From: a virus
Lineage: Duplodnaviria; Caudoviricetes
Reading direction: 5' to 3' (one strand)
Virus record (IMG/VR): IMGVR_UViG_2904541872_000002
Location: 1,693 to 65,692 of that record
Length of the DNA: 64,000 bases
A program made the translations under genes and the position numbers. Shown one piece after another: positions 5,899 to 41,476 of the stretch; position 1 is the first letter of the stretch; the number at the start of each line of letters is the position of its first letter. The notes beneath the pieces were generated by a model. That model ran no database searches. It was given only the letters and a program-made list of their open reading frames with translations, and was not told the DNA's origin.

Positions 5899-5940
5899 AT
5901 GATTTCGGCGCGCGGCCGCGCGGTCGAACCCTAGAGGGGG
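5899..5940 (-). promoter_or_regulatory. Late promoter element copy 1 (holin operon), predicted leaderless
   Basis: Minus strand CCCCCTCTAGGG-TTCGAC-N18-AATCAT, ATG 8 nt after the last -10 base. Confidence 0.75.
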
Positions 5941-5968
5941 AGCGACTTCGCCGCTACCATTCACATGC

Positions 5969-5994
5969 GACTAGCCTAACGGCCAGAACCGGTC
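5969..5994. repeat. 26-bp GGCC-centred cassette-boundary site 1
   Basis: GACTAGCCTAAC-GGCC-AGAA-CCGGTC. Confidence 0.5.
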
Positions 5995-6071
5995 ATCGAG
6001 CGTCGCGGCTGATTGCAACAGAGTTCGAACCCCGACCTGAGGAGCACACCGCTTGCGGCGTGAACAGACAG

Positions 6072-6461
6072 ATGAAGATGTACATCCTTGTCCGAGACGA
6101 CATCCCGCTAGGCTTCGCCATGGTCGCCGTGGCTCATGCATCCTTGGCAGGCTATCTCAAGTTTCAGAACGAGCCAGAAACACAGAAGTGGCTTTCGGGC
6201 CCTTTTTTCAAGGCCGTCTGTAAGGCGAATGCCAAAGAGTTTGAGAACGCCAAACAGGTTGGCGACCATCTGGTTTTGACTGAATCTGCGCTTGAGAATC
6301 AAGAGGTAGCGATTGTCTTCAAGCCTCGGGATGAATGGCCAAAGATGTTCAAATTCCTTCGACTCTACAAGGAGGCCCCATTGCCTCCGGCTGTGTCTGA
6401 ATGGCAGGGCGCGGCCAGAAGCAGACCTCTATTGTCCAACAGCATCAGAAAACTCCTGTGA
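6072..6461 (+). CDS. Peptidyl-tRNA hydrolase 2 (Pth2)-like protein, cargo gene
   Basis: MKMYILVRDDIPLGFAMVAVAHA start, W..GPFFKAVCKAN, LTES, AIVFKPR; low GC; reads through site 6401-6426; alternative GTG start 6060. Confidence 0.75.
   Translation: MKMYILVRDDIPLGFAMVAVAHASLAGYLKFQNEPETQKWLSGPFFKAVCKANAKEFENAKQVGDHLVLTESALENQEVAIVFKPRDEWPKMFKFLRLYKEAPLPPAVSEWQGAARSRPLLSNSIRKLL
6401..6426. repeat. 26-bp GGCC-centred cassette-boundary site 2
   Basis: ATGGCAGGGCGC-GGCC-AGAA-GCAGAC. Confidence 0.55.
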
Positions 6462-6504
6462 TTAAAACCTTCAGTGGCGTTGCATTGGTGGGCTACGGGC
6501 GTCA

Positions 6505-7104
6505 TTGATGGACGTCCAGCCTTCAGTTGATCCTGCTGTTTTCTCCCACATTCGTGTGGTGCTCAGCATGGTGGTGAGCCTGGGGATCGCACGATTGCTA
6601 TCCGGCGTGGCCCGGTTTGTCCAGCATCCTGGGCGCAGGCCTGCGTACGGCGTCCACTTGGTGTGGGCGCTGTCCCTGCTGCTATCGATGATGCACTTCT
6701 GGTGGTGGGAGTTTTCCCTCTCGCACTTGCAGGTCTGGCGCTTCGAGACCTATGTCTTTGTCGTCGGTTATGCCGCTCTCTACTACCTCCTCTGTACAAT
6801 TCTCTTCCCCGACGACCTAGCGGAATACGCAGGCTACCGTGACTACTTCATGTCTCGTCGGCGATGGTTCTTCGGACTGCTGGCCACGACGTATATCGTC
6901 GATGTCGCAGACACCTGGATCAAAGGTCGAGACCACCTTAGCGCGCAGGGGTACGAATATCCGATAAGGACCGTCGTTTATGTGGTGCTATGCCTTCTCG
7001 CGGCGCGCACCGCCAATGCGCGTTTTCATATCGCTTTTGCTGTGCTCAGCCTGGTCTACCAAGTCTCATGGATCCTTCGCCTGTACGACGTGATCGGTAT
7101 TTGA
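6505..7104 (+). CDS. Multi-pass inner-membrane protein, cargo gene
   Basis: 199 aa, about 5-6 hydrophobic segments, HFWWWEF and LFPDD motifs, low GC, antisense to late operon. Confidence 0.8.
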   Translation: MMDVQPSVDPAVFSHIRVVLSMVVSLGIARLLSGVARFVQHPGRRPAYGVHLVWALSLLLSMMHFWWWEFSLSHLQVWRFETYVFVVGYAALYYLLCTILFPDDLAEYAGYRDYFMSRRRWFFGLLATTYIVDVADTWIKGRDHLSAQGYEYPIRTVVYVVLCLLAARTANARFHIAFAVLSLVYQVSWILRLYDVIGI

Positions 7105-7186
7105 GCTGCAATCGGATTCTCATGGGTGAACGTTTTCGGGCAAGTGCGCACGTAGCGCCCGCAACGACTGCTTTGGAGAGCTCCGA

Positions 7187-7237
7187 CCGGCTGGTTCGGG
7201 CCCAAAGCAGACATCCCCGATGCCTGAAAGCAGACAT
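7187..7237. repeat. 26-bp GGCC-centred cassette-boundary site 3 plus adjacent half-site
   Basis: CCGGCTGGTTCG-GGCC-CAAA-GCAGAC (7187-7212) then GCCT-GAAA-GCAGAC-AT (7222-7237). Confidence 0.55.
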
Positions 7238-7257
7238 TCGTCCGGGCAATGGCGCGT

Positions 7258-7539
7258 CTACCCTTGAGCCTTCGTCCACCGCTTGTGCAGTGCGAAGCTG
7301 CGATGCCGAGTCCGTTGCTCGTACTGTCGTCCGCGACCGATGGCTTCAAGCCTCGTCGCGATTACGGAGTCGATTGGTGCGCCTTGCTCCAGCCACCCGA
7401 CCGCAAGCGCGGGCCAGTAGTCGGTCGGCCAGTTCAGCGCACCAAGAAGAATCTCGCTTGCTGGCATCGAACCGGAGTACGACGAGTACGGCGACTCCAG
7501 CGCCGGTAGAAAGCGAATGAACTCGGGGTCTGATGCCAT
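7258..7539 (-). CDS. Small hypothetical protein, cargo gene
   Basis: 93 aa, W-rich (NWPTDYWPALAVGWLEQG), low GC, lies between two boundary sites. Confidence 0.65.
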   Translation of the reverse strand: MASDPEFIRFLPALESPYSSYSGSMPASEILLGALNWPTDYWPALAVGWLEQGAPIDSVIATRLEAIGRGRQYEQRTRHRSFALHKRWTKAQG

Positions 7540-7545
7540 AGCTTA

Positions 7546-7571
7546 GTGTCTGCTCCTGGCCGACTGTAGCC
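7546..7571. repeat. 26-bp GGCC-centred cassette-boundary site 4
   Basis: GTGTCTGCTCCT-GGCC-GACT-GTAGCC. Confidence 0.55.
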
Positions 7572-7681
7572 GGTCACACAGCCGTCGCGAAGGGGCTTTT
7601 GCAAACGCTCAACATGGGCACGCTCTAGCCCCCAAAGTCAACCATGCAGCACGACGGTGCCTCCCTTAGCCGAAACTCCGC

Positions 7682-10600
7682 TTAGTGCGCATCCGCCCGA
7701 GCGCGAGCAAGTTCTTCTTGCATCCGCGCGCGCATCGCACGCGGCGCCGTGTCAGCGATGCGCTGGTCCTTCGACCTTTGCATGTTGCGCACCCGCTCCA
7801 GTACGCTCGGGATGCGGATCACCATGGGTTGGTCGGGATTCTTCGCGTTCCAATCCGCGATCGCCTCGCGCGCGGCGCGCACCTTCGCATCGTCCTTCTC
7901 GAAGATGCCAGCCGCCCACTGCGCTCGGATCTCCTGGCCGCGCAGGTTGTAGAAGGCCTTCGCCTGCTGATTGAGGGCGTTCGCCTCCTGGATGGTGGCC
8001 ACGCTCTGCGGCTGGAAGCCGATCGCCTTCAGCGCCGCCTCGAGGTGGTTGGTCTCCAGCACCTTGTAGCCCTTCGCGTCGCGATACATGCCGGTTGCGG
8101 CCATGTCCACGCCCTTCGCCGCGTTGCGCACGGCTGTGGGCGCGACCTCCAGTGCGCCGGCGCCGACGTTGCCCTTCGCCACGTTCAGCGCGCCGGAGAA
8201 GATGCGGCTCGCGAAGTCGCCGGCCGGGCCCGCGATCTCGAGCACGTCGCGCGTGTGGCTGGTCTTCTGCTGCAGCAGCCCGGTGCCCGGGATCAGGTTG
8301 CCCATGCCCAAGCGGCCGGACACGTCCAGCGGCGCGCCCGGCAGGCCGCTCACGCCCTTGTCAAGGAAGTCGGCGATGCCCTTCGGCAGCATCGCTTCGA
8401 GCACCTCCTGGCGCGCCTTCTTCGCCGAGAAGTTGTAGCCCAGCAGCTGCGCGAGCGCGTCGGCCACATCCTCGGCGTCCTCGGCGAATGGCAGGCCACC
8501 CGAGCCGCCCATCAGCATCAGCATGCCCAGCGCCAGCAGCGCGGCGCGCTTGCCCTCGGGCCCACCCTGCGTGTACATGCGGTGCAGCAGCTCGAGGTAG
8601 GCGATGGAGTAGGTCTTGAACGTCATGAGCGTGCCGCCCACGGCGCCGCGGCCCCATTGCATCTTCGAGGCCTTCGAGTAGACGAATTGGGTTTCCTTCA
8701 CCGCGCGGTTGGCGAATGCAGCGGGATCGGCCTCGCCGCGATCGCGCGCCACGCGGTAGGCGGCGATGAATGTGATCCGGCGATTCACCTGCTCGGCTGC
8801 GCCAAAGACCTTGCCCCATGCGAGCGACAGCCGCGCCAGCGCATTCTGGCCGGCGGCCCGGGCCTCGCCCAGCCGCGTGCCGTCGCCAGCGCGCAGCGAA
8901 CCCGAGCCGCGGGCCTGCGCCATGAGCTGGTGCACCTCCTGCGGCGCGACGACGCCCTCGTCCTCGGCGGTCTTGAGCGCCTTGGCCAAGTCCGGCTCGA
9001 ACTCGAAGCCCTTCGTGGCCATGTTCTTCGCCGCAGTGCCCAGCGCCGCGGCCGCCTTGCGCGCGCCGCCAAACTGGCTGAGCCAGGGGAACGTCACAGC
9101 GGCCGGCTGCGTCATGTTCACGAACGCAGAAGCGATCGAGCCGCCGAGGTACTGCGCGAACAGCAGGCCGCGCACCGCCTGCGCTTCCTCCTGCGGGTTC
9201 TTCACGTACTCGGCCAGGCGCACGGCAACGTCTTTCAGCTCGCCCTGCTCCTTCGGGATCGCGTTCACGGCCTCGCCCAGGTCGCCCATGTTCAGGCCGG
9301 CGGCAGTCTGCCGCGCATTGCTGTAGATGAAGCTGGCCAGCACGCGGCCCACGTCCTCGCTGAAGCCCGCGATGCCCTTGCGATGGATCAGGCGGCGCAT
9401 AGCGCTGCGATTGGTCTTCGTGAGCTTCAGGTACTCCTGGAAGGCCTGGTCCTGCGCGCGATCGCCGGTCGAGCTGAGGCCCAGCGCATTGCCGAACAGC
9501 TCGAGCGTCTCGGGCGTGACGCCGGCGAACATCTTGAAGGCCTCCTCGGACAGCGTGCCCTGGCTGACTGCGCCCTCGCCGAACTCGCCGCGCATGCGCG
9601 CGGCCATGGTGTTGGCCTCGCGCGCGGTCTCGAACAGGCCGAAGTACTGCCGCTCGCCCTTGGCATCGACGACGTCGACCGAGTAGCGGCCGAAGCGCGA
9701 CAACGGCGCGTAGCCGCGGGCCTGCAGATCGCGCACCTTGTCGGCCCGGTCCATGATGCCGTTGGCGGTGTTCATCAGCAGCGTGGAGCGGTCGGGCTGG
9801 TCGGCCGCGAGCTGCGCGAGGTGATCGCGGATCAGCACCGCCGCCGCCTGCGCGTCCGGCGCGTCCATCACCATCGTGCGCAGGCCCTTGGCGTCGTCGC
9901 CTGCAAAGCGCAGCATGTCGGCGCGCGCCATGGTGTCGAGGGAGCGGTTCGTCGCTTCCCGGAACTCCCGGTACAGCGCGACCTGGTCGTCGGTCAGCTG
10001 GAACATGCTGCGCAGCTCCGCATCGCTCCAGACCACGCCCGGCTGCAGCATGCGCGACTCGTAGCGCGACGCCACGGCCTTCTCGTACGACTCGAGCGGC
10101 ATTCCCTGCCAAGCCTTGAGCATGCGCTCGTCGAGCATGCCGTTGCGCAGCAGGCGCTGGGCCTTCTGCTCGGATGTGAGTCCGGCCGCGGCATCGATCA
10201 GGGACTGCACCTGCACCGGCTTGCCCTGCTCGTCCCGCGCCCAGGTCAACGTGCCCTCGAAAACCGGCTTGGCCACCGCTGCGTTGTCGGCGGCGGAGAT
10301 AGGCGACTTCTTGATGTCGCGCCAAGTCTCCAGCTTCGGCAGCAGCTTGGGCGCCAGTTCGGCCGCGTCGGTGGCGTAGTGGCTCACATCGTCGACGAAG
10401 CCCTGCGCAGCATCGAAGACGGGCTTGAACGCCGGCGAACGCTCGGCCAGGTTGTACATCGTGCCGATGGTCTTGTGCCACCAGCTGAGCCGGCCCGGCG
10501 CCGAGAACGACTTGTTGAGTTCGGCGGCCGCGGTGCGCGCGTACTCGCCCACGGTCGAGCGGCTGAACATGATGTCGGGGTTCGACTCGTCGAAGGTGCC

Positions 10601-13600
10601 GGCATTGCCGCTGGCGCTCTTAATCTGCCCCGGCTGGAACACGATGAACTCGCGCCCGCCGCCCTGGTGGCTGACGATGATCCCGTCGTAGCCTCGGCTG
10701 ATGAGTTCTTGCCGGACGTAGTCGTCGTCCATCTCGGCGCCAGGCTGCTCCATGACCTGGTTGACGACCTCGAGCGGCGCGGGATTCTTGAGGGAAAGAT
10801 AGACGTCCATCACGCGACCGCCCTCGCCTTCCGCGTAGGCCGCGGCGGCCTGCTTCTGGTCCGTGAAGTAGAAGCCATTGCCCCAATCGGCGTTGCCGTC
10901 GCCCTCACCGAGGAACTCGTCGTTGAAGGCCGTGAACTCCGCCGTGGTGCCGTGGAACACCTGCAGCGGCGCGCCCTGGGCGTCCACCACCTTGCTTTCG
11001 CCGAACCACGCGCGGAAGGCGGGCGTCGAAGTCTGTTCGGTGCCCGTGGGCTCGCCCTCCGCCGGGTTGACGCTGTAGATGCGATCCAGGACACTACGGA
11101 TTGCTCCGGCATCCGCTCTGGACTGCACCCCAGCTCCGGCTGCACCTGCACCAGCCTCGAAGGCGGACTGCTGGAGCTTCTCTCTCAGGACCACCTCGTG
11201 GACGTACATGCGCTTGGCATTCGAGTCCGCCTTCACCAGCACCACCTCCACCATGTCGCGATCGCTGATGCGCACCGGCGCGGCGACGTGGTAGACCATG
11301 CCCGCGTCGCGCGCGCCCTCCATCGCTTCGGCGTGGATGATCTTGCCGTTCTTGAGCACGTCCGGCACCGCAGCGAAGGCCGTTGCCTTGTCCCGGCCAA
11401 TGCCGTGGAACAGGCTGCTCTTCACGGACTGGCGGTCGAGCGACACGAGGCCGATGCCGGGCACCTCCACCTGCGCGTTGCCCGTGGTCGCGTAGTGCTC
11501 CGTCACCTTCTCGGTGATGGGCACGCCGTCCGGCGCGAACTCCTTCCCGGTCATCTGCGCCACTGGAGCGCCTTCCAGGAACGCGCGGCTCTCGGCGTCG
11601 GGGTCGGTCCCTTCGGCCCGGCTGAACGCGAGGCCGGCGCGCGGCGCCGCGGCGCCGGCGCTGCGCTCCACGAATGCGCGCGCCGGCAGGATGAAGTTCC
11701 GGATGATCTCGTCGTCGGTGAGGCGCAGGCCACGGAAGCCGGCCACGTTCTCGCGCAACCAGGTGCGGATGGCGGCCACCGCGCGCCGCACGAAGTGCAG
11801 CTCGGGCGTGTTCTGCGCCATTTCGGCCAGCACCTCTTCGGCGGCCGCGCGGCGGTCCAGCTTGTTCACGCCGCGTAGGCCGTACTCGCGCACCTTCGCG
11901 TCGACCTCCGTGCGGCGCATCGTCGCGATCTGGTTGAGCACGCCGTCCAGCTGCTTGCCGAAGGTGCCCCGCAGGCCGTGGTGGCCCAGCACCTCGTGGT
12001 AGAGCACGCGCGCCGCGTCCTCGGCGGTGCCCAGGCGCGAAGCCATCAGGTAGGCCTTGCCGCGGTAGTAGAAGCCCTCCGGCGCGCCGCGCGCGCCACC
12101 GCTGCGCTGGCGCAGATCCGCGCGGCGCGCGGCCTCCGGCACGGCCGCATCGTTCATGTCGAAGGCCACCACGATGTCCGGCGCGTTGCCCCAGGCGCTG
12201 CGGATCGCATCGACCGTCTTCCGCACGGTGGCCACGGCCTGCGCCCGTGCCTGCGGCGAGTAGGTCGGGCGGCTGAGCGCACGCATGGCGTTCGCTGCCT
12301 CGGGCGACATGCCCGCCAAACCGTCGTCCCCGCGGCGGAACAGCGCGGTGTTGCCGTTCTCGCCGGCGCGCGTCTCGATCGTCGTAGCGAGTTGGTCGAA
12401 TGCCTGGTTGATTCGAGCCCGCTCGAGGCCGGCCGGGTACTGCACGCCGGACTCGACGCCGTGCACCAGGTAGTCGGAGCGGGCACCCATCGCCTTGATG
12501 CGATCGAACACCCACGACTCGAAGGCGCGCGCGAACATCTCGGTCGGTCGGGTCCAGTAGCTCTCCTTCCCCTCCTTGATGCCCAGCGACGACTCGTAGT
12601 AGCTGCTCTCCTTGCGCCCCTGGCGCACTGCGTCGGGCGGCAGGCCCAGCGCCTTGGCCAGGTTCTGGCGGGCCGAATCGACGCCGGTGCTGTAGATCCG
12701 CTTCAGGTCTTCGTCGGCGGTACCGGCCAGTCGCGCCTGCGCGCGCTCCAGCGTGAGCTCGGCGTCGCGCACCAGCGCCGCACGGTCGACCTGCTCCCGG
12801 TAGATGGTGCTCATGACCCGGTCGAACGCGCTGGCCAGCTCGGGCCGCAGGTTCTCGAGCCGACCACGACGGCCGGTTCGCTGAGGATCGCCGTCGTAGC
12901 TGCCTTGCGTGTACCAGCCGCTGGCGCCGCGGGCACGCCCCTGATAGGCATCTGCCTGCTCGAGCTCTCCGAAGTAGTGGTCGAGCGCGTGAGCCCACTC
13001 GTGCGCGAGACTGCCGCCGCCGCGGATCTTGGTCATGTTGATGACCAGGCGCCCGGGCTCGTAGTGCGCGGCGAACCGACCGCCGCCGCGCGCCCCGAAG
13101 GCCAGGCCCATGGTGCCGTTCAGGCTCATCGCCGATGGCGGCACGCCCATGACCTGCGCAAGATCGCTCAGGCCGTCGTAGGCCATGTTGATGATGCGCT
13201 GACGCTCGTCCTGAGCGCTCCAGTTGCCGAACTCGATGCCGCGGAAGCCGAAGTCGCGGATGAAGTCGTCCGGCGTCGCGTCTCGGTCCAGGCGCTGCGG
13301 CAGGCCCGCGCGCTGCAGGACGTCGAGATGCGGGCGCTCCGGCTCTTGCCCACGGGTCGTGCTGGCCAGCTCGGCCTCGTAGAGGCGCCGCGCCGCCGCC
13401 TCGGCGTCCTCTCGCGTCATCGCGTAGGCAAGCACTCGGCCACCGATCTGTCGACGGACCTCGAAGTAGGAGCCCGCGATCTGCTCGGCCGTCAGTGGCG
13501 TGCCCATCTCCGCCGACTGCTCGAGCGTCAGCTCGCGGCCGCGCGGCGTGAGCGATTTGCCACTCGCTTCCCTGACGCCGAAGCGCCTGGCCCACGGCTC

Positions 13601-16600
13601 GCCTTTGGCAGGGAAGCCGTCGGCCACCATCTTGCGAACGCGCATCAAGTCCGAGTGGTCGAGCACGAACGGGTCGCTGCGTCCCTTGTACACGGAGAAC
13701 AGCGTGGCGCGGGCCTCGCGCTGATGCGCGCCGAGATCCTCGATGCCCGCTGCATTGCGCCGCGCGAGGTCGCTACGGCCCTCGGTCCATCGCAGATGGT
13801 CGTACAGCAGGCGCTCCTTCGCGCCGGCAATGTTTTCCGGGGTGAGCTCGCTGTACACCGCGCGCACCGCCTGCATCATGCGCACGTAGCGGCGGCGGCC
13901 CGCTGGCGTGTTGTCCTTCGGCTGCGCGGCGAGGCGGTCGTAGATCACTTTCGCCGATGCCGCGGTCACGGGGTTCATGCCGCCGCTGACCAACGCCGTC
14001 CAGTCGGGCTTCCAGATGTTCGCCTTCGTGGCCAGCTCGGCGCCTTCGGCCTCGCTCATCTCGTTGAGGTCGGACACGTTGAGGCCGCGCTCCTTCCAAC
14101 GATCCTTTCGGGCGCCGCCGATCTTCTCGCCGGCATCCTGGATGCTCTCGGCAGGCGCAGCCGCTGGCGTGCGCGGCGGACGCTTTTTCTCGGGCTCCTT
14201 CGCTTCAACGGGTCGGCCCGACGGCAAAGCCGTCGGCTCGGGCGTGGGCGTGGGCGTGGGCGTGGGCGTGGGCTCGGGCTCGGGCTCGGGCGTGGGCGTG
14301 GGCGTGGGCGTGGGCGTGGGCGTGGGCGTGGGCGTGGACGTGGGCGTGGGCGTGGGCGTGGGCGTGGGCGTGGGCGCCGAAGCATCGTCCAACGTCGAGC
14401 TGGGGAACTCACGGGCGGCCTCGAGCAGTAGGTCGATCGGCGCATCCAGGCGGATCGTGCGCACGTCTTCGCCCCGCTCGCGTGCGGCGAGCCATTGGTG
14501 GTGGCCGTCGAGCACATGGCCGTCGCTGGACACCAGAATCGCGCGATCGCCGCCCGTGAACTCGCCAGCCCATTGGACGCGATCCGGACTGAACTCCGCC
14601 TGGGTCGGCTTGAGGCTGGCGGCCGGTACCGTCTCATCCGTGTGCGCAATGCCGCGTGCGCTCATGAAGTTGACCATTGCGCCACGGTGCTCCGCGCGGA
14701 TCTGCGGCATTTCCGACCGCGGCACACCCTTCGTCCCGGAGTCCGCCGCGAAGGTCGACCACTCGCCATCCGCCGCGCGGCCCAGCTGCTTCGCTGCCGG
14801 CAGCGGCTCACGCGCTTGAGGATGCGCTGCCGGCGCGGCCGGCGCCGCGCTCGTGGCGCTCCGCTCCTTCACCACGTAGCGCCGGTTCTCGGGCACCACC
14901 TCGTGCGTGTCGGCCAGGCCGTTCTCGCTGACGAAGGCATCGGCCTTGGCCTGGGACAGGAACCACGCCTTGCCCTCTTCCACTCGGCGCTGCGCCTTCT
15001 CGCGGCGCGCCGAGGGCACGGCCGGTGCCGGTGCCGGTGCCGGTGCCGGTGCCGGTGCCGGTGCCGGTGCGGGTGCTGCTGGCGCGGGCGGCGCCGCGCG
15101 GCGCGCGCGCGCCCGGGCAATGCCGTCTCGCACGCTGGTCGGCGCCGCCGCTGCGTCGACAGCTGCTGCCGGCGCAGCTGGCGCCGCTATGGCTTTCGCT
15201 GGCTCGGCTCGTCCTTGCTCGGCCGGAGCTGCTGCAGCAGCCGGTTGCGCGCCTTGGGCGACATCTGCCGCAGGCGCAACAGCGCCGCGAGCACCTTCTT
15301 CCGGGCCCGTGGCTCCGCGGGCAGCTTGAATGGCATCTGCAATCTCCTGGTCGTTCGCGCCAAGGGCGCGGAGGAATTGTTCATCGGTGACGTTGCGGTC
15401 GCCGAAGTCGGGCACGTCGTCCTCGAGCGCGGCGGCCATGTGCCCTTCGGTCTCACGGTCGAGCGCGTGGAAGTAGTCGTCGTAGAGCGTACGGTCGCGC
15501 TCGTCGAGGTCGGAGTAGTCGAGCACGGGCGGCGCCGCGCGGTTGGCAGCCGTGGCCTCCTCCTGCTCGGCCATCGCGGCAGCGTCGGCTTGGCGCTGGG
15601 CGTCCTGCAGCAGCTGGCCGTGCGCACCGGAATCCACGGCGATCGCGGCGCCGGTGGAGAGCGGGCCGGCAGCCGGGTCGATGCCCATGGCCTGAGACGG
15701 CAGCGGTGCTGCGCGCACAGCTGGCGCGCCAGCTGGTGCCTCGGTGGACGGCGGCGATGGTTGCGGCGCCAGGCCCATCAGGCGCGTCCGCGCCGCGGCG
15801 CGCTGTTCTTCCGGCAGGCGCGCGAGATAGGCGTCGACCTCTGCCTGCCGGCCGACGGTTCCATCGGGGAACGCGACGAGCGTGTCGGGCTGGTAACCGA
15901 GCTGCAGCGGCTCGGCGGCAGGGGCCGCGGCGGACTCGCCGCGCGCGCCCGCGCCGTGCACCAGCGCCGCGCCGCCGCCCATCGCACCGCCGGCCAGCAG
16001 GCCCTGCGCGGCGGCCGCACCGACGCCCTCGCCTACGGGCTTGTCGAGCGCGAGGTTCTGCAGCGCCTGCTCGGCCATCGACTGCGGGACCTCCTCGAGC
16101 ACGCCCTCGGAGAGCACGCCCTCGCCCACCTGGCGCGCCAGCGAGCGCTGCGAGGCATGGCCAGCGCCGCGGATCGAGCCCTGCGCCAGCATGGTGTCGG
16201 CGTCGCCGATGCCGAGGCGCTGCGCGACGCGGCCGCCGGCGGCACCGAACGCGGTGGTGGTCACGCCGCTCGCGGCGGCCAGCGCCGCCTGCTGTGGGGT
16301 CAGCAGCCCGTCCGTGGTCTCCTGGCGGATCTGCTCGGCCTGCGAGCCAGCGCCCAGCACGCCCTCGCCGATCGCACCGGCGATGGCCGGCGCAATCTTC
16401 GCGCCCGTGGCCAGCACGCCCCGCGCCACGCCGGCGCCGCCGAGCATCTGCGGGATCGACTCGCCCACGCTGGTCGCGATCGTGCTCGGGTTCTCCAGCA
16501 TCGCCTGGGCCGTGCCCACGAAGCCGTCGGCCTCGGCCACCTTGCGGTTGGCGGCCTTCTGCGCATCGGAGTACTGGTCCGCGAGGATGTCCTGGGTGTC

Positions 16601-16861: not shown

Positions 16862-16902
16862 ATCCTCTGCACGAGGGAGGGGGGAGTCGAACCCTAGAGG
16901 GG
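16862..16902 (-). promoter_or_regulatory. Late promoter element copy 2 (giant protein), predicted leaderless
   Basis: CCCCTCTAGGG-TTCGAC-N18-GAGGAT, ATG 7 nt after. Confidence 0.75.
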
Positions 16903-17721: not shown

Positions 17722-17762
17722 AGTCTGGCGCTGGACGACGGCACCGCCGAACCCCACAGGGG
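17722..17762 (-). promoter_or_regulatory. Late promoter element copy 3, predicted leaderless
   Basis: CCCCTGTGGGG-TTCGGC-N18-CAGACT, ATG 7 nt after. Confidence 0.65.
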
Positions 17763-20314: not shown

Positions 20315-20357
20315 ATTCTTCGCGGCAGCCGCACGGCCAGCCAAGCCCTATAGGGGG
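20315..20357 (-). promoter_or_regulatory. Late promoter element copy 4
   Basis: CCCCCTATAGGG-CTTGGC-N19-AAGAAT. Confidence 0.65.
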
Positions 20358-28394: not shown

Positions 28395-29063
28395 TCAGAA
28401 CGGATAGACCACGGTCTGGTGGTCCTGATCGTGCCGGGCGGTGCGGCGGAGGTCGCTGTCGGGTGGCAGGCCGAAGTAGGTGGTGAAGGCCGCCTCGGCC
28501 TTGCCAGCGCGCACCGGGTCGAAGGTGTCGGCGTCCGGCACGCTGAAGGCGCGGAACAGCGCCCAGTCCACCAGGTGGCGGTGGTGCGCGCGGTGGATTT
28601 CGGGCTCGTCGGTGTCCTGCGCCATCGCAACCAGCGGCAGCCGGTAGCCCTCGATCCGCAGCACGCCCCCGACCGCCGGCACGCGCGCGAGCCGCAGCGA
28701 CTTGTCGTCCTGCACAGCGTGGTCGACGAGGCCGCGCTCGCGGCGCCAGTCGGGCATGCTGCGATCGAGCTCACCGGCGGACTTCAGCGTCACCTGTCGC
28801 GCCTGGCTGCCGTCCGATGGCTCGAAGACGAGGTAGCCGAGTTCGTAGAGGCTCGGGTGCAGCACGTAGACCGTGACGCCCGCCTGCACCGCGATCTCGC
28901 ACAGCGTTGCGTTGGCGCTCTCGTGCAGCAGCCGCGCGCGCACCGCTGCCTCGTCCTGTGCTTCGTTCAGCCACGCGATGACGTCCTCTTCCTCGAAGAG
29001 GGGCGGGTCGGCGCGATCCTTCGCGTCGACCCGAAAGGCAGCGATCAGCGCCTGGAGGTTCAT
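28395..29063 (-). CDS. Head-tail adaptor protein
   Basis: 222 aa, EEEDVIAWLNEAQDEAA, PEIHRAHHRHLVDWALFRAF. Confidence 0.75.
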   Translation of the reverse strand: MNLQALIAAFRVDAKDRADPPLFEEEDVIAWLNEAQDEAAVRARLLHESANATLCEIAVQAGVTVYVLHPSLYELGYLVFEPSDGSQARQVTLKSAGELDRSMPDWRRERGLVDHAVQDDKSLRLARVPAVGGVLRIEGYRLPLVAMAQDTDEPEIHRAHHRHLVDWALFRAFSVPDADTFDPVRAGKAEAAFTTYFGLPPDSDLRRTARHDQDHQTVVYPF

Positions 29064-32855: not shown

Positions 32856-32897
32856 AGTGTCGAAAGAGCAAAGGCAAAGACGAAACCCTACAGGGGG
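32856..32897 (-). promoter_or_regulatory. Late promoter element copy 5 (scaffold-capsid operon)
   Basis: CCCCCTGTAGGG-TTTCGT-N18-GACACT. Confidence 0.7.
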
Positions 32898-34053: not shown

Positions 34054-34917
34054 TTAGGCAACCACCACCCAGTCCTCCGCCAGCATGTCGGTTTGCGAGG
34101 CGAGCCAGCCCATGAGGATCTCGCCGTTGGCGGTCTTCATCGTGATGGACGGCAGCACCATGGCTGTGCCGTTCGGCTGCTGCTCGGCCCACTTCCGGTT
34201 CGCCGACGCCCAAAAGCCCGCGGCCGGCACCTCGCGCGAGCCGTCGCAGCTCAGGGCGAGCCACATGTCCTTGCCGTTCCAGCCGAGGCGCGCGACGCGC
34301 TCGCCATGCTTCAGGGCCCGCAGCGCCGCGCCGAAGTCCAGGACCGAGCGCTGCCCGCGCGCAGCAAACACCGCGTCGACCGCTTCTTCGGCCTTGCCCG
34401 GACCTTCGTCCTGGTGATCGTCGCGCACCGGAATGCTGACGACCTTAGGCGCTGCGGCCGACCTGGTCCCGATCAGCGCATCGATCGCTTCGCGCACCTG
34501 CGTGCCGACACGCGCGCCACCGTGCCCCAACTCCGCGACTCGAGCCGCCAGCGAATGCGAGGCCGACAGTTCGAGGTCCTGGCGGTGCGTGCGTGCAATG
34601 GGCGCCGCGGTTGCATCCTGCCGCGCGGCCTGGCCCTTCTGGAACGGCATCCAGGTGCAGAACCACCCGAAGTCGACACGAGCGGGATCGGGTTCCGGCA
34701 AGAGGTCAACGCTGGTGCGACCGTGCGGTGCACCGTTGGCATCGAACACGGTCAGATTGACCAGCACGTCGCTCCACACATGCGTGACGATCGCGGCGTA
34801 GGGCTGATCGGCGCCGGCGGCATGGCGCGCGAAGCCAGCCTCGGCGCCGTTCGCACAGGGATAGAACCAGAGCACGCGGCCGACGGTTGGGGTGATCTGG
34901 GGTTGAGGGGTGTTCAT
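34054..34917 (-). CDS. Fusion: uncharacterised phage N-domain plus C-terminal DUF2829 (Tad2-like) domain
   Basis: Start ATG 34917 after AGGAG; N-domain PTVGRVLWFYP...WMPFQ; C-domain LDFGAALRALKHGERVARLGWNGKDMW...GWLASQTDMLAEDW. Confidence 0.85.
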   Translation of the reverse strand: MNTPQPQITPTVGRVLWFYPCANGAEAGFARHAAGADQPYAAIVTHVWSDVLVNLTVFDANGAPHGRTSVDLLPEPDPARVDFGWFCTWMPFQKGQAARQDATAAPIARTHRQDLELSASHSLAARVAELGHGGARVGTQVREAIDALIGTRSAAAPKVVSIPVRDDHQDEGPGKAEEAVDAVFAARGQRSVLDFGAALRALKHGERVARLGWNGKDMWLALSCDGSREVPAAGFWASANRKWAEQQPNGTAMVLPSITMKTANGEILMGWLASQTDMLAEDWVVVA

Positions 34918-35046: not shown

Positions 35047-35088
35047 AATGTCGATGCAGGGACGCGACAGCACCATCCCTACAAGGGG
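35047..35088 (-). promoter_or_regulatory. Late promoter element copy 6 (Tad2-fusion leader)
   Basis: CCCCTTGTAGGG-ATGGTG-N18-GACATT. Confidence 0.55.
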
Positions 35089-35782: not shown

Positions 35783-35783
35783 T

Positions 35784-38120
35784 CTACACCGGTACGTTGT
35801 CTGACGTGCGCGCGGTCTCGATACCGTCCATGCCCTCGCCGCCGGCGCGCGGCCGCGGCGGGAACGTCGGGCTGCTGTTCTCGCGCACTGGCGGTGCGGC
35901 AGCCGCTTCTTCCTGAGCCGCCGGCGGCACCACCGCGCCACCCTGCCCTTGGATGTACGGGTCCTTGATGTTCATCGCCGCGGTCTGCGCCGGCGTCGGG
36001 AAGTTCGGGTCGTCGCCGCCCGGGCTGGGCCGCGTGTAGCCCGCGCCCTGCATGATCGCGTCGGCGATCGGCGCGATCATCGGCATCTGCGCCACCTGCG
36101 CGCCACCCTGCATCGCTGCGAAGGCCGCCTGCACGCCGGTCTGCACGGCCTGGGCCATCAGCTGCTTGATCTGCGCGTCGGTCAGCCGCTCCTTCATGTC
36201 GAGTTCGCGGGCCTTCAGGTCGTGGCCGGCCATCTTGACCTCCTGCGCCACGCGCTCCTGCACCTGCTTCTCGATCTCCTCGGGCGAGGCCTGCTGACCA
36301 GCGGCGCGCAGCGCCTGCACCAGGTCGCGCTTGAACGGCACGTCCATGAGGCTCGCGAGGAACGGCATGGCCGCCGCCTGGTACTGCGCAGGCAGGCTCT
36401 TGACCGCCTCGCCCATGACGTTGAGCTGCTGCCCGCGGTAGGTGGGGCTGCTCGGCACGTCCTCGAGCCCGACCTTCAGCCGCGTGCGCTGCAGGTCGTT
36501 GCTCAGGTAGGCCACGCCGGTCTTCGGGTCGATCTCGGGCTTGTTGAGGAGGACTGTGCGGTCGGGCGTGATGGCGTCGCCTTCGATGACGATGGTGTGC
36601 GGCTCCTTGCCCATGTCCTCGACGATCATGGCCAACAGCAGCTCGCCCACCTGGGTGCGCGCGGCCTTGAAGTTGTCCATCAGGTGCGCCAGGCCCTGGT
36701 TCGCCTGCTCGACCTGCGTCTCCTCCTGCACGCCGCTGGTGGCCGTGCCGCGGCGGCCCGAGAACGCACCGGCCGCCGCCGGCGCGACGCGCTCGAGCGC
36801 CATGCGCGCGTCGTTGAGCATCTGCAACTGCTGGTCGGTGAGCTGCACGTCGCGCTTCACCTCGAACCGCGCGCCCTGCTGCGCCATTGCCGCGGCGTTG
36901 AGCACGATGTCGGCATTGCGGCGCCCGACCTGGCGGCGCAGTTGCTCGTCGGTCATGTCGACGGCGCCTTTCGTGCGCTCCACCCGGTAGGCGCTCATGC
37001 CCCATGTCATCGTGGCCGTGCCGCTGTTCAGCCGGTCCTGCTGGAAGATCATGCCGCGCACCAGGCCGTAGGGCACGCGCGTGCCGTCCTCCCGGTAGCC
37101 CCAGAACGGCACGTAGGGAAAATGCCGGTGCGTGTACGGGCTGGGCCCGTCGTGTAGGCGGTGCGGCCCGAGCCAGAAGCTGCGGCGCACGCGCGCGATG
37201 ACGGTGTGCTGCGGGCGCACGAGGCCGCGGGCCAGCGAGTAGTTGTGGACCGCGTTCTCCCGGTCGTACTCGACCACGCGGCCATCAGGCGAGCGCAGCA
37301 CCACGGCCTCGGCCCAGCGGCGGTACCAGACCTCGGACACGCACATGTCCTTGCTGACCGGGTCGTACCAGTTGTGCTCGGCCACGGTCCAGCCACGCGC
37401 CGCGTCCCAGGCGCCCGTGGTCAGCCCGGTAGAGCCGCCGCCGTCCAGCGACTCGGGCGAGAGATTCACCCACCAGTTCTGCCCGTGGCGGCCGCACTCG
37501 ATGATCAGGTCCTTGTGCTTCGGGAACACCTTGGCGACGCGGCTCGGCGGCAGCCAGCGCTCGCGGCGCAGGTAGCGCGCGTCGCTCAAGTCGTCCTCCT
37601 TGGCGTAGAAGTCCCAGTGGATCTCGTTGCGGTGCACGGCGCTGCAGCGGTACTGGTACTTGAAGGGGTCCGACTCGCGCGAGACCTCCACCCAGCCGAG
37701 GCCCACGGCCGCCTGCGGTCGGAAGGCCTTCGAGCACGCCTGGTCGGCCTTGGAATGGCGCTCGGCCTCGTTGAGCCGGAAGTTGAGCGCCTCGGCGACG
37801 TCCTGGCCTTCCGGCTGGCCATTCGGCGTCACGCGCCAGTCCGTGCGCACCGTCGCCTCGTAGCCCTGGATGGCCAGCAGCGCCGGCCCAATGAGGTCCT
37901 CCTTCGCTGGCGGGATGCCCAGCTCCTTCTGCGCGCGCAGCAGCTCGGTGTCCAGCTGGTTGCCGTCGGCGTAGTCGAGTTCCTTGTCGGCCACGGAGCG
38001 CCACGGCGGCTGCTGCTCGATCTCATAGATGAACTGGCGGTATTCCTCGAGGGTCAGCGCGCCGTCGGCGTCGATCTCCTCCTCGATGCTCAGGGTGGTG
38101 GTGCTGTTGCTCATGGTCAT
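35784..38120 (-). CDS. Portal protein, P22-like
   Basis: Start ATG 38120; ELDYADGNQL, GLGWVEV, FPYVPFWGYR, YGLVRGMIFQQD, GTATSG; long C-terminal barrel/tail. Confidence 0.9.
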   Translation of the reverse strand: MTMSNSTTTLSIEEEIDADGALTLEEYRQFIYEIEQQPPWRSVADKELDYADGNQLDTELLRAQKELGIPPAKEDLIGPALLAIQGYEATVRTDWRVTPNGQPEGQDVAEALNFRLNEAERHSKADQACSKAFRPQAAVGLGWVEVSRESDPFKYQYRCSAVHRNEIHWDFYAKEDDLSDARYLRRERWLPPSRVAKVFPKHKDLIIECGRHGQNWWVNLSPESLDGGGSTGLTTGAWDAARGWTVAEHNWYDPVSKDMCVSEVWYRRWAEAVVLRSPDGRVVEYDRENAVHNYSLARGLVRPQHTVIARVRRSFWLGPHRLHDGPSPYTHRHFPYVPFWGYREDGTRVPYGLVRGMIFQQDRLNSGTATMTWGMSAYRVERTKGAVDMTDEQLRRQVGRRNADIVLNAAAMAQQGARFEVKRDVQLTDQQLQMLNDARMALERVAPAAAGAFSGRRGTATSGVQEETQVEQANQGLAHLMDNFKAARTQVGELLLAMIVEDMGKEPHTIVIEGDAITPDRTVLLNKPEIDPKTGVAYLSNDLQRTRLKVGLEDVPSSPTYRGQQLNVMGEAVKSLPAQYQAAAMPFLASLMDVPFKRDLVQALRAAGQQASPEEIEKQVQERVAQEVKMAGHDLKARELDMKERLTDAQIKQLMAQAVQTGVQAAFAAMQGGAQVAQMPMIAPIADAIMQGAGYTRPSPGGDDPNFPTPAQTAAMNIKDPYIQGQGGAVVPPAAQEEAAAAPPVRENSSPTFPPRPRAGGEGMDGIETARTSDNVPV

Positions 38121-38130
38121 GGTGGTGCTC

Positions 38131-39882
38131 CTACACGCGCCAGTCGGAGGCCGGGGCCTCGACGTAGGCGGTGTTGTCGGTGAGGTTGGACAGCAGGCCC
38201 AGCTCCTTGGCCTGGGCCCACTGGCGCAGCGCGTCGGCACCCTCGGTGCAGCCGTTGCTCTTGTCGGGCTGGTCGAGATAGCGGCTCTCCGACTGGCTGA
38301 ATTTCTTGCGGTAGCCCTGGATGCGCTCGACACCTTGCTTCGTGGCGTCGAGGTCGAAGAAGGCGCCCTTGATGTGCTTACGCACGGCGTAGATGCCGGC
38401 CATCAGATCGGTGACGCACGGCACGATGAAGAAGGCCTGGCCAGGCAGCAGCTGCTCGAGCTGCTCCTTCGTGCTCCTGTTGTAGTCGCCGAGGCGCTTG
38501 TGGTTCGCGTCGTGCGGCAGGAAGTGGCCGCCGTAGAGGTAGCCGCGGTCCTGGAGGTGCCGCGCGTAGTGGCGCAGGTCCTCGCCGTGCTCCTCGTAGT
38601 AGCCGATGAACCGGTCCTCGCTGCGCAGGATCTGCATGAACCAGATGGCCGTGCCGTCTTTGTTGCCGATGTCCCAGAACGTGAACACGGGCAGGTCGAG
38701 CACCGGCACCTGGCAGATGCCGCCTCGCTTGCGCAGCAACACCATGTCCTTCGCGTAGTAGTGGCCGGCCGTGGACTGCTGGAATGCCTCCTCGGGGGTC
38801 GAGGGGTACTCTTGCCACATGCGCTCCTCTTTGCCCGAGAAGTCATTGCGCAGCTTCTCGACGTACCAGGCGCGCTGGCCCAGGTCGATCTTGGCGTCGA
38901 TCTTCGACTCGAGCTCGTCGAAGTAGTCGTGCTGCTCGGGCGTGATGGACACGCCGGCCGGGTCGATCGAGTAGGTCGGGTCCTGCCACCAGGCGTAGAA
39001 GTGGAAGCGGTACTGGCTGGGCGTCAGCTTGCGCGCGCCGGCCACCAGCGCCTGGGCGCGCTGGCAGATGTCGTAGAACTCGCCCTCGGTGCCTTCGGCC
39101 GTGCTCTCGATGACCAGGATGCCGGACAGCGGCACGGCCTGGAACGAGCCCGTGACGACTTCGTTGGCCTTCGCGGGAAACTTGGCGCAGATCTTCCCGA
39201 ACTCGGAGACGTGCAGCCTGTGGATGGTGCCGCCGCGCACGCTGGTGGCCACGCGGATGCTGCTGTTGTTGTGGCCGAACAGCAGTTCCTTCGTGCTGGC
39301 GCGCGCGAGCGGAAAGCGCTGACGGATCTCCTCGGGCAGGTGGTCGTATGCGAAGACGACCTTGTCGCGGAAGATGGCCTCGGCCGTCTCGCGGTCCTGC
39401 GCGATCATGCCGCAGCGCTGGTTCCCGTTGAACAGCGCGTGGTCGAGCCAGAGGATGGCGACCAGCGTGGTGAAGCCGAGCTGCCGAGCCTTCAGGATGA
39501 CGTTGCGGTGCCAGAGCCTGGTGATGAAGCGCTTCTGCGCGCGGTTCGGCTTGAACGGCATGACGAAGGAATCGCCCTCGTCGATGACCTCGCCCTCCTC
39601 GTTCCTGATCGGCTCGCCCTTGACGATGATCTGGTAGAGGCAGCCGCTGAACAGGCGCCACTGCGGGTCGCGCAAGCAGCGCTCGAGTTCCGCCGCGTCC
39701 GTGGGCAGGAAGTCGGCGTGCTTGGCGATGTGCGGCCCGCGCTTCGGCCGGCGCCGGTTGTCCCAGCGGTGCCCGAGCTGCGCGTCGAGGTCGCGACCAG
39801 GCTCGACCTCAAGCGCGGTGTCGTCCTCGTCAAGCGTGCCCGGGTCGGCGGGGCGCGCCGCAGCCTTAGCCTGGAGCGCCAT
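38131..39882 (-). CDS. Terminase large subunit
   Basis: Walker A LKARQLGFTT, Walker B LHVSEFG, IESTAEG, nuclease WDIG, HFLPHD, ADALR; start ATG 39882. Confidence 0.95.
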   Translation of the reverse strand: MALQAKAAARPADPGTLDEDDTALEVEPGRDLDAQLGHRWDNRRRPKRGPHIAKHADFLPTDAAELERCLRDPQWRLFSGCLYQIIVKGEPIRNEEGEVIDEGDSFVMPFKPNRAQKRFITRLWHRNVILKARQLGFTTLVAILWLDHALFNGNQRCGMIAQDRETAEAIFRDKVVFAYDHLPEEIRQRFPLARASTKELLFGHNNSSIRVATSVRGGTIHRLHVSEFGKICAKFPAKANEVVTGSFQAVPLSGILVIESTAEGTEGEFYDICQRAQALVAGARKLTPSQYRFHFYAWWQDPTYSIDPAGVSITPEQHDYFDELESKIDAKIDLGQRAWYVEKLRNDFSGKEERMWQEYPSTPEEAFQQSTAGHYYAKDMVLLRKRGGICQVPVLDLPVFTFWDIGNKDGTAIWFMQILRSEDRFIGYYEEHGEDLRHYARHLQDRGYLYGGHFLPHDANHKRLGDYNRSTKEQLEQLLPGQAFFIVPCVTDLMAGIYAVRKHIKGAFFDLDATKQGVERIQGYRKKFSQSESRYLDQPDKSNGCTEGADALRQWAQAKELGLLSNLTDNTAYVEAPASDWRV

Positions 39883-40804
39883 CGTCCACGTCCTGGCGCG
39901 GCAGGAGGCTATTCGTGCCGCTGGGAGCCTCGGGCGCCTCCGGGTCGTTGGCCACGGGCCGGAACCCGTTGCCATTGCCATTCGCGATGCTGTGCAGCAG
40001 GGCCGCCAGAGGGTCGGTCTTCTGCTGGTTGTCCTTCTCGTAGAGGCCCAGGTGCTTGAACAGCTTCTCCATGGCCGCGCCCTTGTCGTGCATCGAGATC
40101 TCGATGCCGTACTTGGTCATCTTGGCGCCGGCGTAGAGAGCGAGCGCCCGCGGCGACAGGCGGCGTGTGTCGGCCAGCACGGTGCGCGCGTGGCCATCGC
40201 CGCCGCAGTCCGGGCAGGCCGGGTGCGGCGGCTTGAGCGGGTCGAAGCCGATGCCGCCCTTCTCGTCGAAGTCGGCCGGGCCGCCGCCCTTCACGGCGTG
40301 CTGCTCGCGGTCGTGATTGAACTCGCCGATGGTGCGCTGCCACTTGAAGCCCTCGCCCCAGCAGTGCCGGCAGCAGCCGACCTTCACCTGCACCAGCTCG
40401 CGCGGGTCGGCCAGCATGATGTTCCACGCCTCGGTCACCACGCGGTCCGCGTCGACCTGCGTGCGCTCCTGCTGCGCCTTCCTGGCATCAGCGATCGCGG
40501 CCTGGATGTACGGTTTTGACAGGTTCTCCGAGGCCATCTGCCGCGCGCTGTCGGGGCTGTATCCGGCCCGGACTGCTGCCTGCGTGCCGTTTAGGTCGAC
40601 CAGGTACTCGTCGACGAAGCGCTGCTGCAGGTCGGTAAGGCCGAGCTGGGCCGGATCCGTTGCTGGTCGGCGTGGCTTCTTCGGCTTGGCGGCCGGTGCC
40701 CTCTTGCGCGCAGGCGAGCCCGCGGCCTTCTTGGGGGCTGCGGGCTTGGTGGTGGTCTTCTTCGGTGCGGGCGCCGGCTTCTTGGCCGGCTTGCGTGGTG
40801 CCAT
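39866..40804 (-). CDS. Terminase small subunit with zinc-finger insertion
   Basis: LTDLQQRFVDEYLVDLNGTQAAVRAGYS; CRHCWG...CPDCGGDG; HDKGAAMEKLFKHLG. Confidence 0.9.
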   Translation of the reverse strand: MAPRKPAKKPAPAPKKTTTKPAAPKKAAGSPARKRAPAAKPKKPRRPATDPAQLGLTDLQQRFVDEYLVDLNGTQAAVRAGYSPDSARQMASENLSKPYIQAAIADARKAQQERTQVDADRVVTEAWNIMLADPRELVQVKVGCCRHCWGEGFKWQRTIGEFNHDREQHAVKGGGPADFDEKGGIGFDPLKPPHPACPDCGGDGHARTVLADTRRLSPRALALYAGAKMTKYGIEISMHDKGAAMEKLFKHLGLYEKDNQQKTDPLAALLHSIANGNGNGFRPVANDPEAPEAPSGTNSLLPRQDVDDGAPG

Positions 40805-40811
40805 GCGGGCG

Positions 40812-40854
40812 AGTCTTCCGCGCGCGGGCCCGGGGGGCGAACCCTATAGGGGGG
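40812..40854 (-). promoter_or_regulatory. Late promoter element copy 7 (terminase operon), predicted leaderless
   Basis: CCCCCCTATAGGG-TTCGCC-N18-AAGACT, ATG 8 nt after, no SD. Confidence 0.75.
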
Positions 40855-40993
40855 CCCATCGACGCGAAGCTCGGGCGAAAGAACCAGGTCCTAGGGTTGC
40901 ACACGAGAACTTATGGTTCAGCACTGTAGGACAGCGTCTCGGCGGGGAGCGAAACCCTTGCGCCTACAGCCGATGTCTCTTGAAGATTAGGGG

Positions 40994-41194
40994 ATGCTCG
41001 TCTCTGATCCCGAATTGAAATCGCGCCTGACGGCTCAAATGGCCTGGGAGGCTGCATGCGAGCGGGTTCGCAAGACGCTGCACCCACCTCTTGGCTATCC
41101 CAAGCCAACCCCGGAGGAACTCGAGGCCGCCTTCACGAATGCCGCAGAACGGCTGCATACCTTGCGCGTCATCTGCACCACGCCAGAGGAATGA
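40994..41194 (+). CDS. Small hypothetical protein (66 aa)
   Basis: ATG after GGGG, helical amphipathic sequence, stop abuts terminator A tract. Confidence 0.55.
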   Translation: MLVSDPELKSRLTAQMAWEAACERVRKTLHPPLGYPKPTPEELEAAFTNAAERLHTLRVICTTPEE

Positions 41195-41222
41195 AAAAAC
41201 CCGCCAGGGTGGTCCTGGCGGG
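41194..41222 (-). terminator. Intrinsic terminator of candidate ncRNA
   Basis: 9-bp stem 41200-41208 / 41214-41222, T6 on the minus strand. Confidence 0.85.
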
Positions 41223-41428
41223 CGAACGTGCGACCGAGGCCGCTCGAGGAGACAACTGGCCGGCTCGATGCCGGGAGCGGTCCATCCGACTACGCGCGCT
41301 GCGCGCTGGACCGTGCGGTTTCGTCCCACCCTGCAACCCCTGGGACGAGCAGGAGGAAAAATCCGGAGTGGCTTACCCCCCACTCCAGCACCAGGGCTGG
41401 CGCCGTGTTCGGGGTCCGGTTGCCCGTG
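41194..41428 (-). ncRNA. Candidate structured ncRNA (about 235 nt)
   Basis: Upstream late promoter copy, at least four hairpins, no convincing ORF, ends in terminator CCCGCCAGG-ACCAC-CCTGGCGGG-TTTTTT. Confidence 0.6.
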
Positions 41429-41434
41429 GCCTGA

Positions 41435-41476
41435 ATCTTCCGGCTGCCGGCACATGCGGCGAATCCCTACAGGGGG
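41435..41476 (-). promoter_or_regulatory. Late promoter element copy 8 (ncRNA)
   Basis: CCCCCTGTAGGG-ATTCGC-N18-GAAGAT. Confidence 0.65.

Follow-up and report, generated by a model that had tools for sequence, protein, structure and literature searches.

The window analysed here comprises 64,000 nucleotides (bases 1693-65692 of the single 65.7-kb virus record IMGVR_UViG_2904541872_000002; G+C 67%) and is, judged by its sequence, an F116-like prophage. We studied a promoter element that is repeated ahead of its late genes, together with the gene at 42858..43418 (minus strand), which encodes a protein of 186 amino acids (aa). The explanation that we favour, and regard as probable with some reserve when taken as a whole, is that the late genes would be split into nine transcription units, each headed by the same sigma-70-type, activator-dependent promoter, and that the 186-aa protein would read the element in it. 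The element, CCCCTnTAGGG, would lie at about -48 to -38, beside a poor -35 hexamer (TTCGAC) that is followed by an 18-nt spacer and a minimal -10 hexamer (nAnnnT), and the predicted start of transcription is 46-48 nt from where the element begins. For four units this start would be the A of the ATG or the base before it, so that the mRNA would be leaderless, and in one unit it would be the first base of an initiator-type tRNA-Met. The 186-aa protein is proposed to bind the element beside the -35 and, like class II activators of the Mu C/Mor kind, to bring in host RNA polymerase.

An earlier note on the same DNA had listed eight copies of the motif. All eight were found, all on the minus strand and each before a late unit, the coordinates in that note being the low ends of the sites; the count itself had to be raised to nine, as a degenerate further copy at 42942 was added. 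The putative late promoters, named in the text by the start of the motif, from which offsets are counted, are as follows:

42902..42942, minus strand: degenerate ninth copy (core 42932-42942 with one mismatch and no TT; hexamer 42902-42907)
41434..41475, minus strand: late promoter without an open reading frame (ORF) behind it (27.1 bits)
40812..40852, minus strand: late promoter of terS-terL-portal (31.5 bits), with the TerS ATG 40804 at offset 48
35047..35087, minus strand: late promoter of the Tad2-like fusion gene (17.8 bits, the weakest copy), with ATG 34917 and a leader of about 120 nt
32856..32896, minus strand: late promoter of the head-gene block (29.1 bits), with ATG 32714 and a leader of about 130 nt
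20315..20356, minus strand: late promoter of the 683-aa gene (25.0 bits), with ATG 20284 and a leader of about 24 nt
17722..17762, minus strand: late promoter of the 49-aa ORF (22.8 bits), with ATG 17715 at offset 47
16862..16902, minus strand: late promoter of the 3057-aa polyvalent protein (29.3 bits), with ATG 16855 at offset 47
5899..5939, minus strand: late promoter of the lysis and tail-fibre block (35.4 bits)
ATG 5891, minus strand: start of the holin-like 103-aa ORF, at offset 48 behind the 5939 copy

A search of both strands of the window for CCCCTNTAGGG with at most one mismatch returned 12 matches against 1.56 expected, and no shuffle gave 12. These matches were 10 minus-strand sites (41475, 40852, 35087, 32896, 20356, 17762, 16902 and 5939, and also 32779 and 42942) and two plus-strand palindromic echoes, of 20356 and 40852. 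Site 32779 was considered as a further promoter and rejected, since it has the core and no -10-like hexamer. A weight matrix was trained on relatives only, with the window and F116 excluded, and was applied to the whole window. It recovered exactly the eight listed copies, at 17.8-35.4 bits and all on the minus strand, and beyond these nothing at or above 12 bits; shuffled windows gave about 0.4 matches per run.

In the eight listed copies the 11-bp core is followed by a TTCGnC-like hexamer (TTCGAC), an 18-nt spacer and nAnnnT. The last hexamer occupies offsets 35-40 from the motif start, and 36-41 in copies 41475 and 20356 because of one extra base before TTCG; when counted from TTCG, the 18-nt distance reported before is correct. 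The A at position 2 and the T at position 6 of this -10-like hexamer are present in 8/8 copies and in the ninth copy at 42942. Across the family they were found in 108 (A) and 102 (T) of 125 sites, these positions having been partly selected for. Conservation was also seen in columns outside those used for selection, namely C at -1, CGAC at 13-16 and A at 48. TTCGAC matches TTGACA in register at only 2/6 positions, making it a poor -35, and a scan of the entire late region for consensus sigma-70 promoters found none. With a start at offset 47-48, as we infer it, the element would be centred at -41.5 to -42.5.

As far as can be read from the letters, the motif abuts a poor -35 and precedes each late unit, the early region being free of it, and the activator-driven, distributed late programme that the earlier note had set in place of lambda Q is backed to the same extent. 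Two parts of that proposal were weakened or not supported. The description of the element as a functional palindrome is doubtful: T7 of the core is invariant and its symmetric partner varies, the spacing of the 5' arm shifts in a sister clade, and only TAGGGTT is left in the most distant relatives. Likewise, the supposed weaker plus-oriented copies (~191-235 and 40887-40931) score below the matrix threshold, and in the candidate at ~191-235 the spacer is 20 nt long and a terminator-like hairpin on the minus strand overlaps the site.

The promoter design is kept in more than 100 related phages and prophages, and a motif search across relatives found it again in F116 and in IMG/VR loci. In F116 (NC_006552, L001), sites on the late strand are at 22728, 28681, 38120, 39376, 45731 and 59202; those at 28681 and 45731 are orthologous to the window copies 32896 and 20356, respectively. 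The copy at 32896 has an intrinsic terminator directly upstream, and the leader of the 683-aa gene behind 20356 contains an SD-like (Shine-Dalgarno-like) GAAGGG. We also examined 70 IMG/VR viral loci, which were found through the regulator protein (the 186-aa protein and its homologues) and oriented by the regulator gene. Core matches were strongly biased to the strand of this gene (137 versus 34 on the opposite strand, several of the latter being palindromic echoes) and to its downstream side (more than 130, versus about five upstream). The hosts of the family include Acinetobacter, Pseudomonas, Variovorax, Thauera and one Desulfuromonas metagenome-assembled genome, and the motif is constant across them. 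The sister clade has an insertion of 1-2 nt that separates the C-run from TAGGG, as in CCCTGTATAGGG. The most distant relatives, in which the core is reduced to TAGGGTT, retain the hexamer together with the 7-nt gap and the ATG before TerS.

In two host genomes the motif was confined to the prophage. The pattern CCCCTNTAGGGTT occurs four times in the 6 Mb of Variovorax paradoxus NBRC 15149, on one strand and no more than 46 kb downstream of the regulator gene, and six times in the 4.4 Mb of Pseudomonas sp. LjRoot71, in each case no more than 29 kb downstream of it. All of these copies are inside the prophage and on the late strand; none was found outside the prophage in either genome, and the reversed control pattern gave none. 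The possibility that the motif is equally frequent at random host positions is thereby contradicted for these two genomes. A loose variant-motif pattern was applied to five genomes with regulators of the other clade and was informative only for Alicycliphilus, where 2/3 matches were in the prophage. As a separate observation, the leader of the head-gene unit (32896-32714 and orthologous loci, including that of F116) carries in many relatives a conserved CAAGC about 6-7 nt past the hexamer, which may reflect the context of the start site or a structure of the leader.

The position of the start codons points to transcripts without leaders. The ATG was found just behind the hexamer, as had been noted, for TerS, the 49-aa ORF, the 3057-aa protein and the holin-like ORF (offset 47-48, 6-7 nt after the hexamer), which leaves these four units no room for a ribosome-binding site (SD). 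When all loci were pooled, about half of the 175-179 distinct promoter-like sites (90 of 179) were followed at offset 47-49 by an ORF of 40 aa or more that begins with ATG; the other offsets from 40 to 63 had zero or one such ORF at nearly each position, and a smaller cluster of eight was seen at offset 39. The ORFs at offset 47-49 belong to at least seven unrelated gene families. TerS is represented by 41 distinct promoters and the polyvalent giant protein by 18 distinct orthologous sites; further families are three holin-like ones, a 120-aa protein, the 49-aa ORF, which is conserved in one relative, and others. Of the ORFs at these offsets that reach 60 aa or more, 86 begin with ATG and two with GTG, which fits the AUG requirement of leaderless initiation. 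Half of the reported copies would probably start transcription at the ATG itself.

Alternatively, the transcripts might not be leaderless: TerS, the giant protein and the holin could start internally, or transcription could start further upstream, with the ATG at this place being incidental. Open frames do arise by chance in G+C-rich DNA, TerS of AT-rich relatives is preceded by a leader with an SD, and the annotated TerS of F116 begins 25 codons downstream of the ATG in question. The peak of 90 in 179 sites, its occurrence before at least seven unrelated families, the excess of ATG over GTG, the lack of room for an SD and the 5' end of a tRNA at the same offset (see below) speak against this alternative, which we consider quite improbable.

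The F116 gene merits a remark of its own. The stretch 22776-22850 of F116 begins with an ATG at offset 48 from site 22728, which shares the reading frame of TerS and precedes the annotated start by 25 codons. This upstream ATG opens a Lys/Pro-rich N-terminus, like that of TerS in the window and in relatives. F116 terS (F116p38) has probably been annotated 25 codons too short.

The ninth copy provided a further indication of the transcription start. This copy is embedded in the 3' end of the regulator gene, ahead of a tRNA gene:

42822..42896, minus strand: tRNA-Met of the initiator type (ARAGORN; Rfam tRNA, 45.3 bits)

The 5' end of this tRNA is at offset 46 from the start of the ninth copy. 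Two hallmarks of bacterial initiator tRNA, a C1xA72 mismatch and a GGG/CCC anticodon stem, can be read directly from its sequence. The mismatch was present in 10/10 tRNA copies (the window and nine relatives), and the GGG/CCC stem in the window copy and most relatives, with AGG/CCT in L003, L009 and L011. The window copy lacks A11:U24 (it has C11:G24) and a 7-nt T loop; its T loop has 5 nt, 2 nt shorter than the 7 nt found in L002 and the other relatives. With the 5-nt T loop and C11:G24, the tRNA-Met of the window may be non-functional, and with the short loop and the core mismatch of its promoter the unit may be decaying. Twelve relatives have the same promoter-tRNA arrangement with intact-looking tRNA copies, often followed by tRNA-Thr, Tyr or Gly, and in 10 relatives the in-gene promoter copy has a perfect core. 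Altogether, the 5' end of tRNA-Met was at offset 46-50 from the motif start in 13 phages. The agreement, to about 2 nt, between the mature end of the tRNA and the predicted start is independent support for the position at which transcription would begin. The tRNA-Met gene was also observed to overlap the last 13 codons of the regulator ORF.

The candidate for the activator is encoded by the following gene:

42858..43418, minus strand: 186-aa candidate late activator, encoded last in the cro-side early operon

The protein belongs to phrog_8117 (E 6e-53), a family without an assigned function in PHROG, and Pfam gave only a weak match to the winged helix-turn-helix of AbiEi_4. More than 560 homologues were found, all unnamed, and the 41 GenBank phages with a homologue have it labelled as hypothetical or as 'AbiEi antitoxin'. 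An AlphaFold2 model (mean predicted local distance difference test, pLDDT, 76) showed a winged helix in residues 2-70, then a beta unit of three strands, a long helix spanning residues 98-146 and a disordered C-terminal tail, the coding part of which runs into the tRNA gene. The 50-residue helix in this model could serve as a dimerisation element. The winged helix resembled the domains of IdeR, IclR and MarR with Z ~10 (VIA-align, PDB). Searches of the PDB for structural relatives of the whole protein with Foldseek and VIA-align matched the N-terminal winged helix only, a sequence profile search of the PDB found nothing, and the ESM Atlas returned hypothetical proteins only.

Gene order and co-occurrence both point to this protein. 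It is 53% identical to F116p37, whose stop codon is 3 nt before the F116 TerS promoter; no other gene separates the early operon of F116 from its first late promoter. In a reverse test, IMG/VR was searched by the DNA pattern (core plus TTCGAC) and 30 contigs outside the protein-search results were taken. Of these, 22 carry the regulator, including 12/12 of the contigs that are at least 90% complete. Among the eight contigs without it, seven are fragments (24-53% complete) and the eighth is a 179-kb contig (88% complete) that may be a chance match to the motif. The element variant follows the clade of the regulator across two terminase types. At residue 59, in the tip of the wing, a polar residue was found in 56 regulators with the canonical core and two with the variant, and a hydrophobic residue in none with the canonical core and nine with the insertion variant; the hydrophobic-59 clade has RVLRG in place of RVQRG. 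By its winged helix, its synteny with F116 and its co-occurrence with the motif, the gene that the earlier note had named is the best candidate.

Several observations nevertheless weigh against parts of the proposed model. Genes are led by leaders in the AT-rich relatives and at most F116 sites, so leaderlessness would not be obligatory. With the usual 7 nt between hexamer and start, transcription of the tRNAs at offset 46 would begin one base within the tRNA. The association of residue 59 with the motif variant represents a single change on the regulator tree, which shared descent explains equally well, and an independent-contrast test of co-variation between regulator and motif has one independent pair only, so that no statistics are possible. 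Co-occurrence of motif and protein likewise reflects the common ancestry of whole phages. L076, L149 and L100 (34-38% identity, same position) have altered residues in the recognition helix and the canonical motif, which argues against a simple residue-to-base code unless these proteins are not orthologues. Finally, an 11-bp element is short for a winged-helix dimer.

Because the association is a single event and three divergent proteins keep the canonical element, we go no further than to call the 186-aa winged-helix protein the probable reader of the element. The promoter could be real and be read by another early protein of the phage or by a host component (the C-terminal domain of alpha, or an alternative sigma), with the winged-helix protein acting elsewhere, for example as a repressor or an AbiEi-like regulator. 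Such a reader would sit well with the canonical motif of the divergent proteins, whose recognition-helix residues have changed, with the confounding of co-occurrence by descent and with the database records that call the homologue an AbiEi antitoxin. A motif that is constant over diverse hosts and absent outside the prophage in two host genomes makes a host regulon unlikely, however, and no sigma-like protein was detected by Pfam in the early region. In F116 no other gene stands between the early operon and the first late promoter, and the 135-aa neighbour of the regulator has no counterpart between the regulator gene and terS there. Another reader is accordingly an unlikely alternative to the 186-aa protein. 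Two further candidates were rejected: Pfam found neither an alternative sigma factor nor a Q protein among the early genes, and the giant 3057-aa protein, considered as a virion RNA polymerase reading the motif, has polyvalent-protein domains and no polymerase domain.

The copy at 41475 differs from the others in that no ORF was found in the transcript predicted from it:

41192..41427, minus strand: predicted non-coding transcript from the 41475 copy

Two strong intrinsic terminators follow this copy, at 41363-41388 (RNA of ~70 nt) and 41199-41223 (RNA of ~235 nt). Both would end the transcript before TerS, which has its own promoter copy. The first 40 nt (5') of the predicted RNA are conserved in at least eight relatives. 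No Rfam family matched it above threshold, and a sub-threshold match to 'Betaproteobacteria toxic sRNA' (small RNA) falls on the second terminator. We also noted that the RNA would be antisense to a plus-strand 66-aa ORF (40994-41194) only with read-through of the terminators.

An ORF-less RNA of 70-235 nt with two strong terminators is reminiscent of lambda 6S RNA, and the regulator gene is at the position of Q. The element could thus be bound by a Q-like antiterminator that loads onto RNA polymerase and renders it terminator-resistant, with 41475 corresponding to the PR'-6S-tR' region of lambda. We found the likeness to 6S RNA to be superficial. F116 has no such RNA unit; there the regulator gene directly adjoins the promoter of TerS. 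When the regulator, the genes beside it and the early region were scanned with Pfam, no Q, Ogr, Mor or sigma domain was detected, and no homology to the Q family was found. There are nine promoters, not one; beyond the terminators TerS is served by a copy of its own, and half of the units would code from +1. No conserved pause element was found after the start, the information content of the family sites being near zero at offsets 49-64. The absence of a Q homologue, the nine promoters, the lack of anything conserved past +1 and the terminator before 32896 make antitermination unlikely, and we rate it as very improbable, the least probable of the readings weighed here.

Activator-dependent, dispersed late promoters are of a known kind (Mu C, P2 Ogr, RinA). 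Mu C and Mor are small activators acting with host sigma-70 polymerase at dispersed promoters with a poor -35, at sites centred near -43.5. The window resembles Mu in having a gene for a small candidate activator that would be made as the earlier phase closes, a set of dispersed late promoters without a good -35, and an element that abuts the -35 region, in what would be class II geometry; host sigma-70 polymerase would serve in both. The proteins differ: Mor and C have a C-terminal helix-turn-helix, whereas the 186-aa protein has an N-terminal winged helix and a long helix, with no relation in sequence or fold. The element of the window has another, shorter sequence, and Mu late mRNAs are not known to be leaderless. 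In P2, 186 and P4, the late activators Ogr, B and Delta are zinc-finger proteins; Ogr acts at a TGT-N12-ACA site near -55 and contacts the alpha subunit. These temperate phages likewise have distributed, activator-dependent late promoters and no antitermination, but neither the zinc finger nor the TGT-N12-ACA site is found here.

In Gram-positive phages, the genes of RinA, ArpU and LtrC are just upstream of terS, and the activators control packaging and lysis genes (PMC3152322, PMC3753634). The activator gene is next to terS in both cases, and the promoter before terS is bound there and predicted to be bound here. The protein families are unrelated, one late operon promoter stands against nine, and leaderless mRNA is not a known feature of those phages. 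With lambda Q, PR' and 6S the window shares the position of the gene at the end of the early right operon and the short terminated RNA predicted from the 41475 copy; unlike lambda, it has no Q homology, many promoters and no conserved pause element. In the Thermus phage phiYS40, middle and late transcripts are reportedly leaderless, a whole temporal class (work said to be that of Sevostyanova et al. in 2007). The lambda cI mRNA from PRM is a leaderless phage mRNA as well (bioRxiv 10.1101/2023.09.02.556006). In these cases, as in the window, the ATG is about 7 nt past the -10 hexamer and the transcript starts, or would start, at the start codon. What differs here is the predicted late regulon of a temperate proteobacterial phage, with a specific activator element and, in part, a phage initiator tRNA.

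Full-text literature searches, in which the 2005 F116 genome paper was beyond reach, found no account of this protein family, of the element or of systematic +1 start codons, nor of how late genes are switched on in F116-like phages. Among the phages of Pseudomonas aeruginosa, F116 is a classical generalized transducer, and prophages related to it are common in beta- and gammaproteobacteria. We tentatively suggest, as a possibility that is doubtful in its entirety, that F116-like phages have a self-contained late module of a sort not described so far, in which a new family of winged-helix activators (phrog_8117) would act at about -42 on many dispersed promoters, transcripts would be leaderless with AUG at the start, and an initiator tRNA would in part of the phages come from a leaderless promoter of the same type. 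Raised fMet-tRNA (formylmethionyl-tRNA) gives a strong boost to leaderless translation and a mild one to canonical translation (review, PMC9031893). If the suggestion were true, extra fMet-tRNA from the phage would tilt host ribosomes towards leaderless phage messages, a form of translational take-over, and late packaging, structural and lysis proteins would be made from leaderless mRNA, which would be unusual for phages of Proteobacteria. The analysis offers a promoter model with start predictions at single-base level, a corrected start of F116 TerS and a candidate activator family, phrog_8117, that is listed in databases as hypothetical or mislabelled as AbiEi antitoxin. The pair of promoter and activator could act as a compact, orthogonal and host-independent expression switch.

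The phage of the window is a temperate F116-like podophage, and the host is probably of the Variovorax type. The terS-terL-portal block has a DNA identity of ~71% to Pseudomonas phage F116 and relatives (genus Hollowayvirus), and the nearest relatives of the regulator protein are in Variovorax prophages. TerS was identified by Pfam. The genes have a lambdoid layout:

61005-62102: integrase, adjoining host tRNA genes
plus strand: leftward early operon
50696-51463, plus strand: cI-like repressor
50369-50623, minus strand: cro
minus strand, ending at 42858: rightward (cro-side) early operon
minus strand, running down to ~236: all late genes

The 3057-aa gene (7682-16855, minus strand) encodes the domains ART-PolyVal, LPD1 and LPD3 of a polyvalent virion protein. 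The protein of the Tad2-like fusion gene (34054-34917, minus strand; 287 aa) has in its C-terminal third a Tad2-like (Thoeris anti-defence) domain, and the gene has its own late promoter copy with the leader of about 120 nt. Two plus-strand ORFs, the 66-aa one mentioned above and one of 225 aa (41500-42177), oppose the late genes between late promoter copies and look like morons; the 225-aa ORF has a weak PHROG match only. The portal (35784-38333, minus strand) shares ~33% identity with its counterparts in 933W-type, Stx-converting phages, whose late control is by Q antitermination, so that related head modules are paired with different late-control systems.

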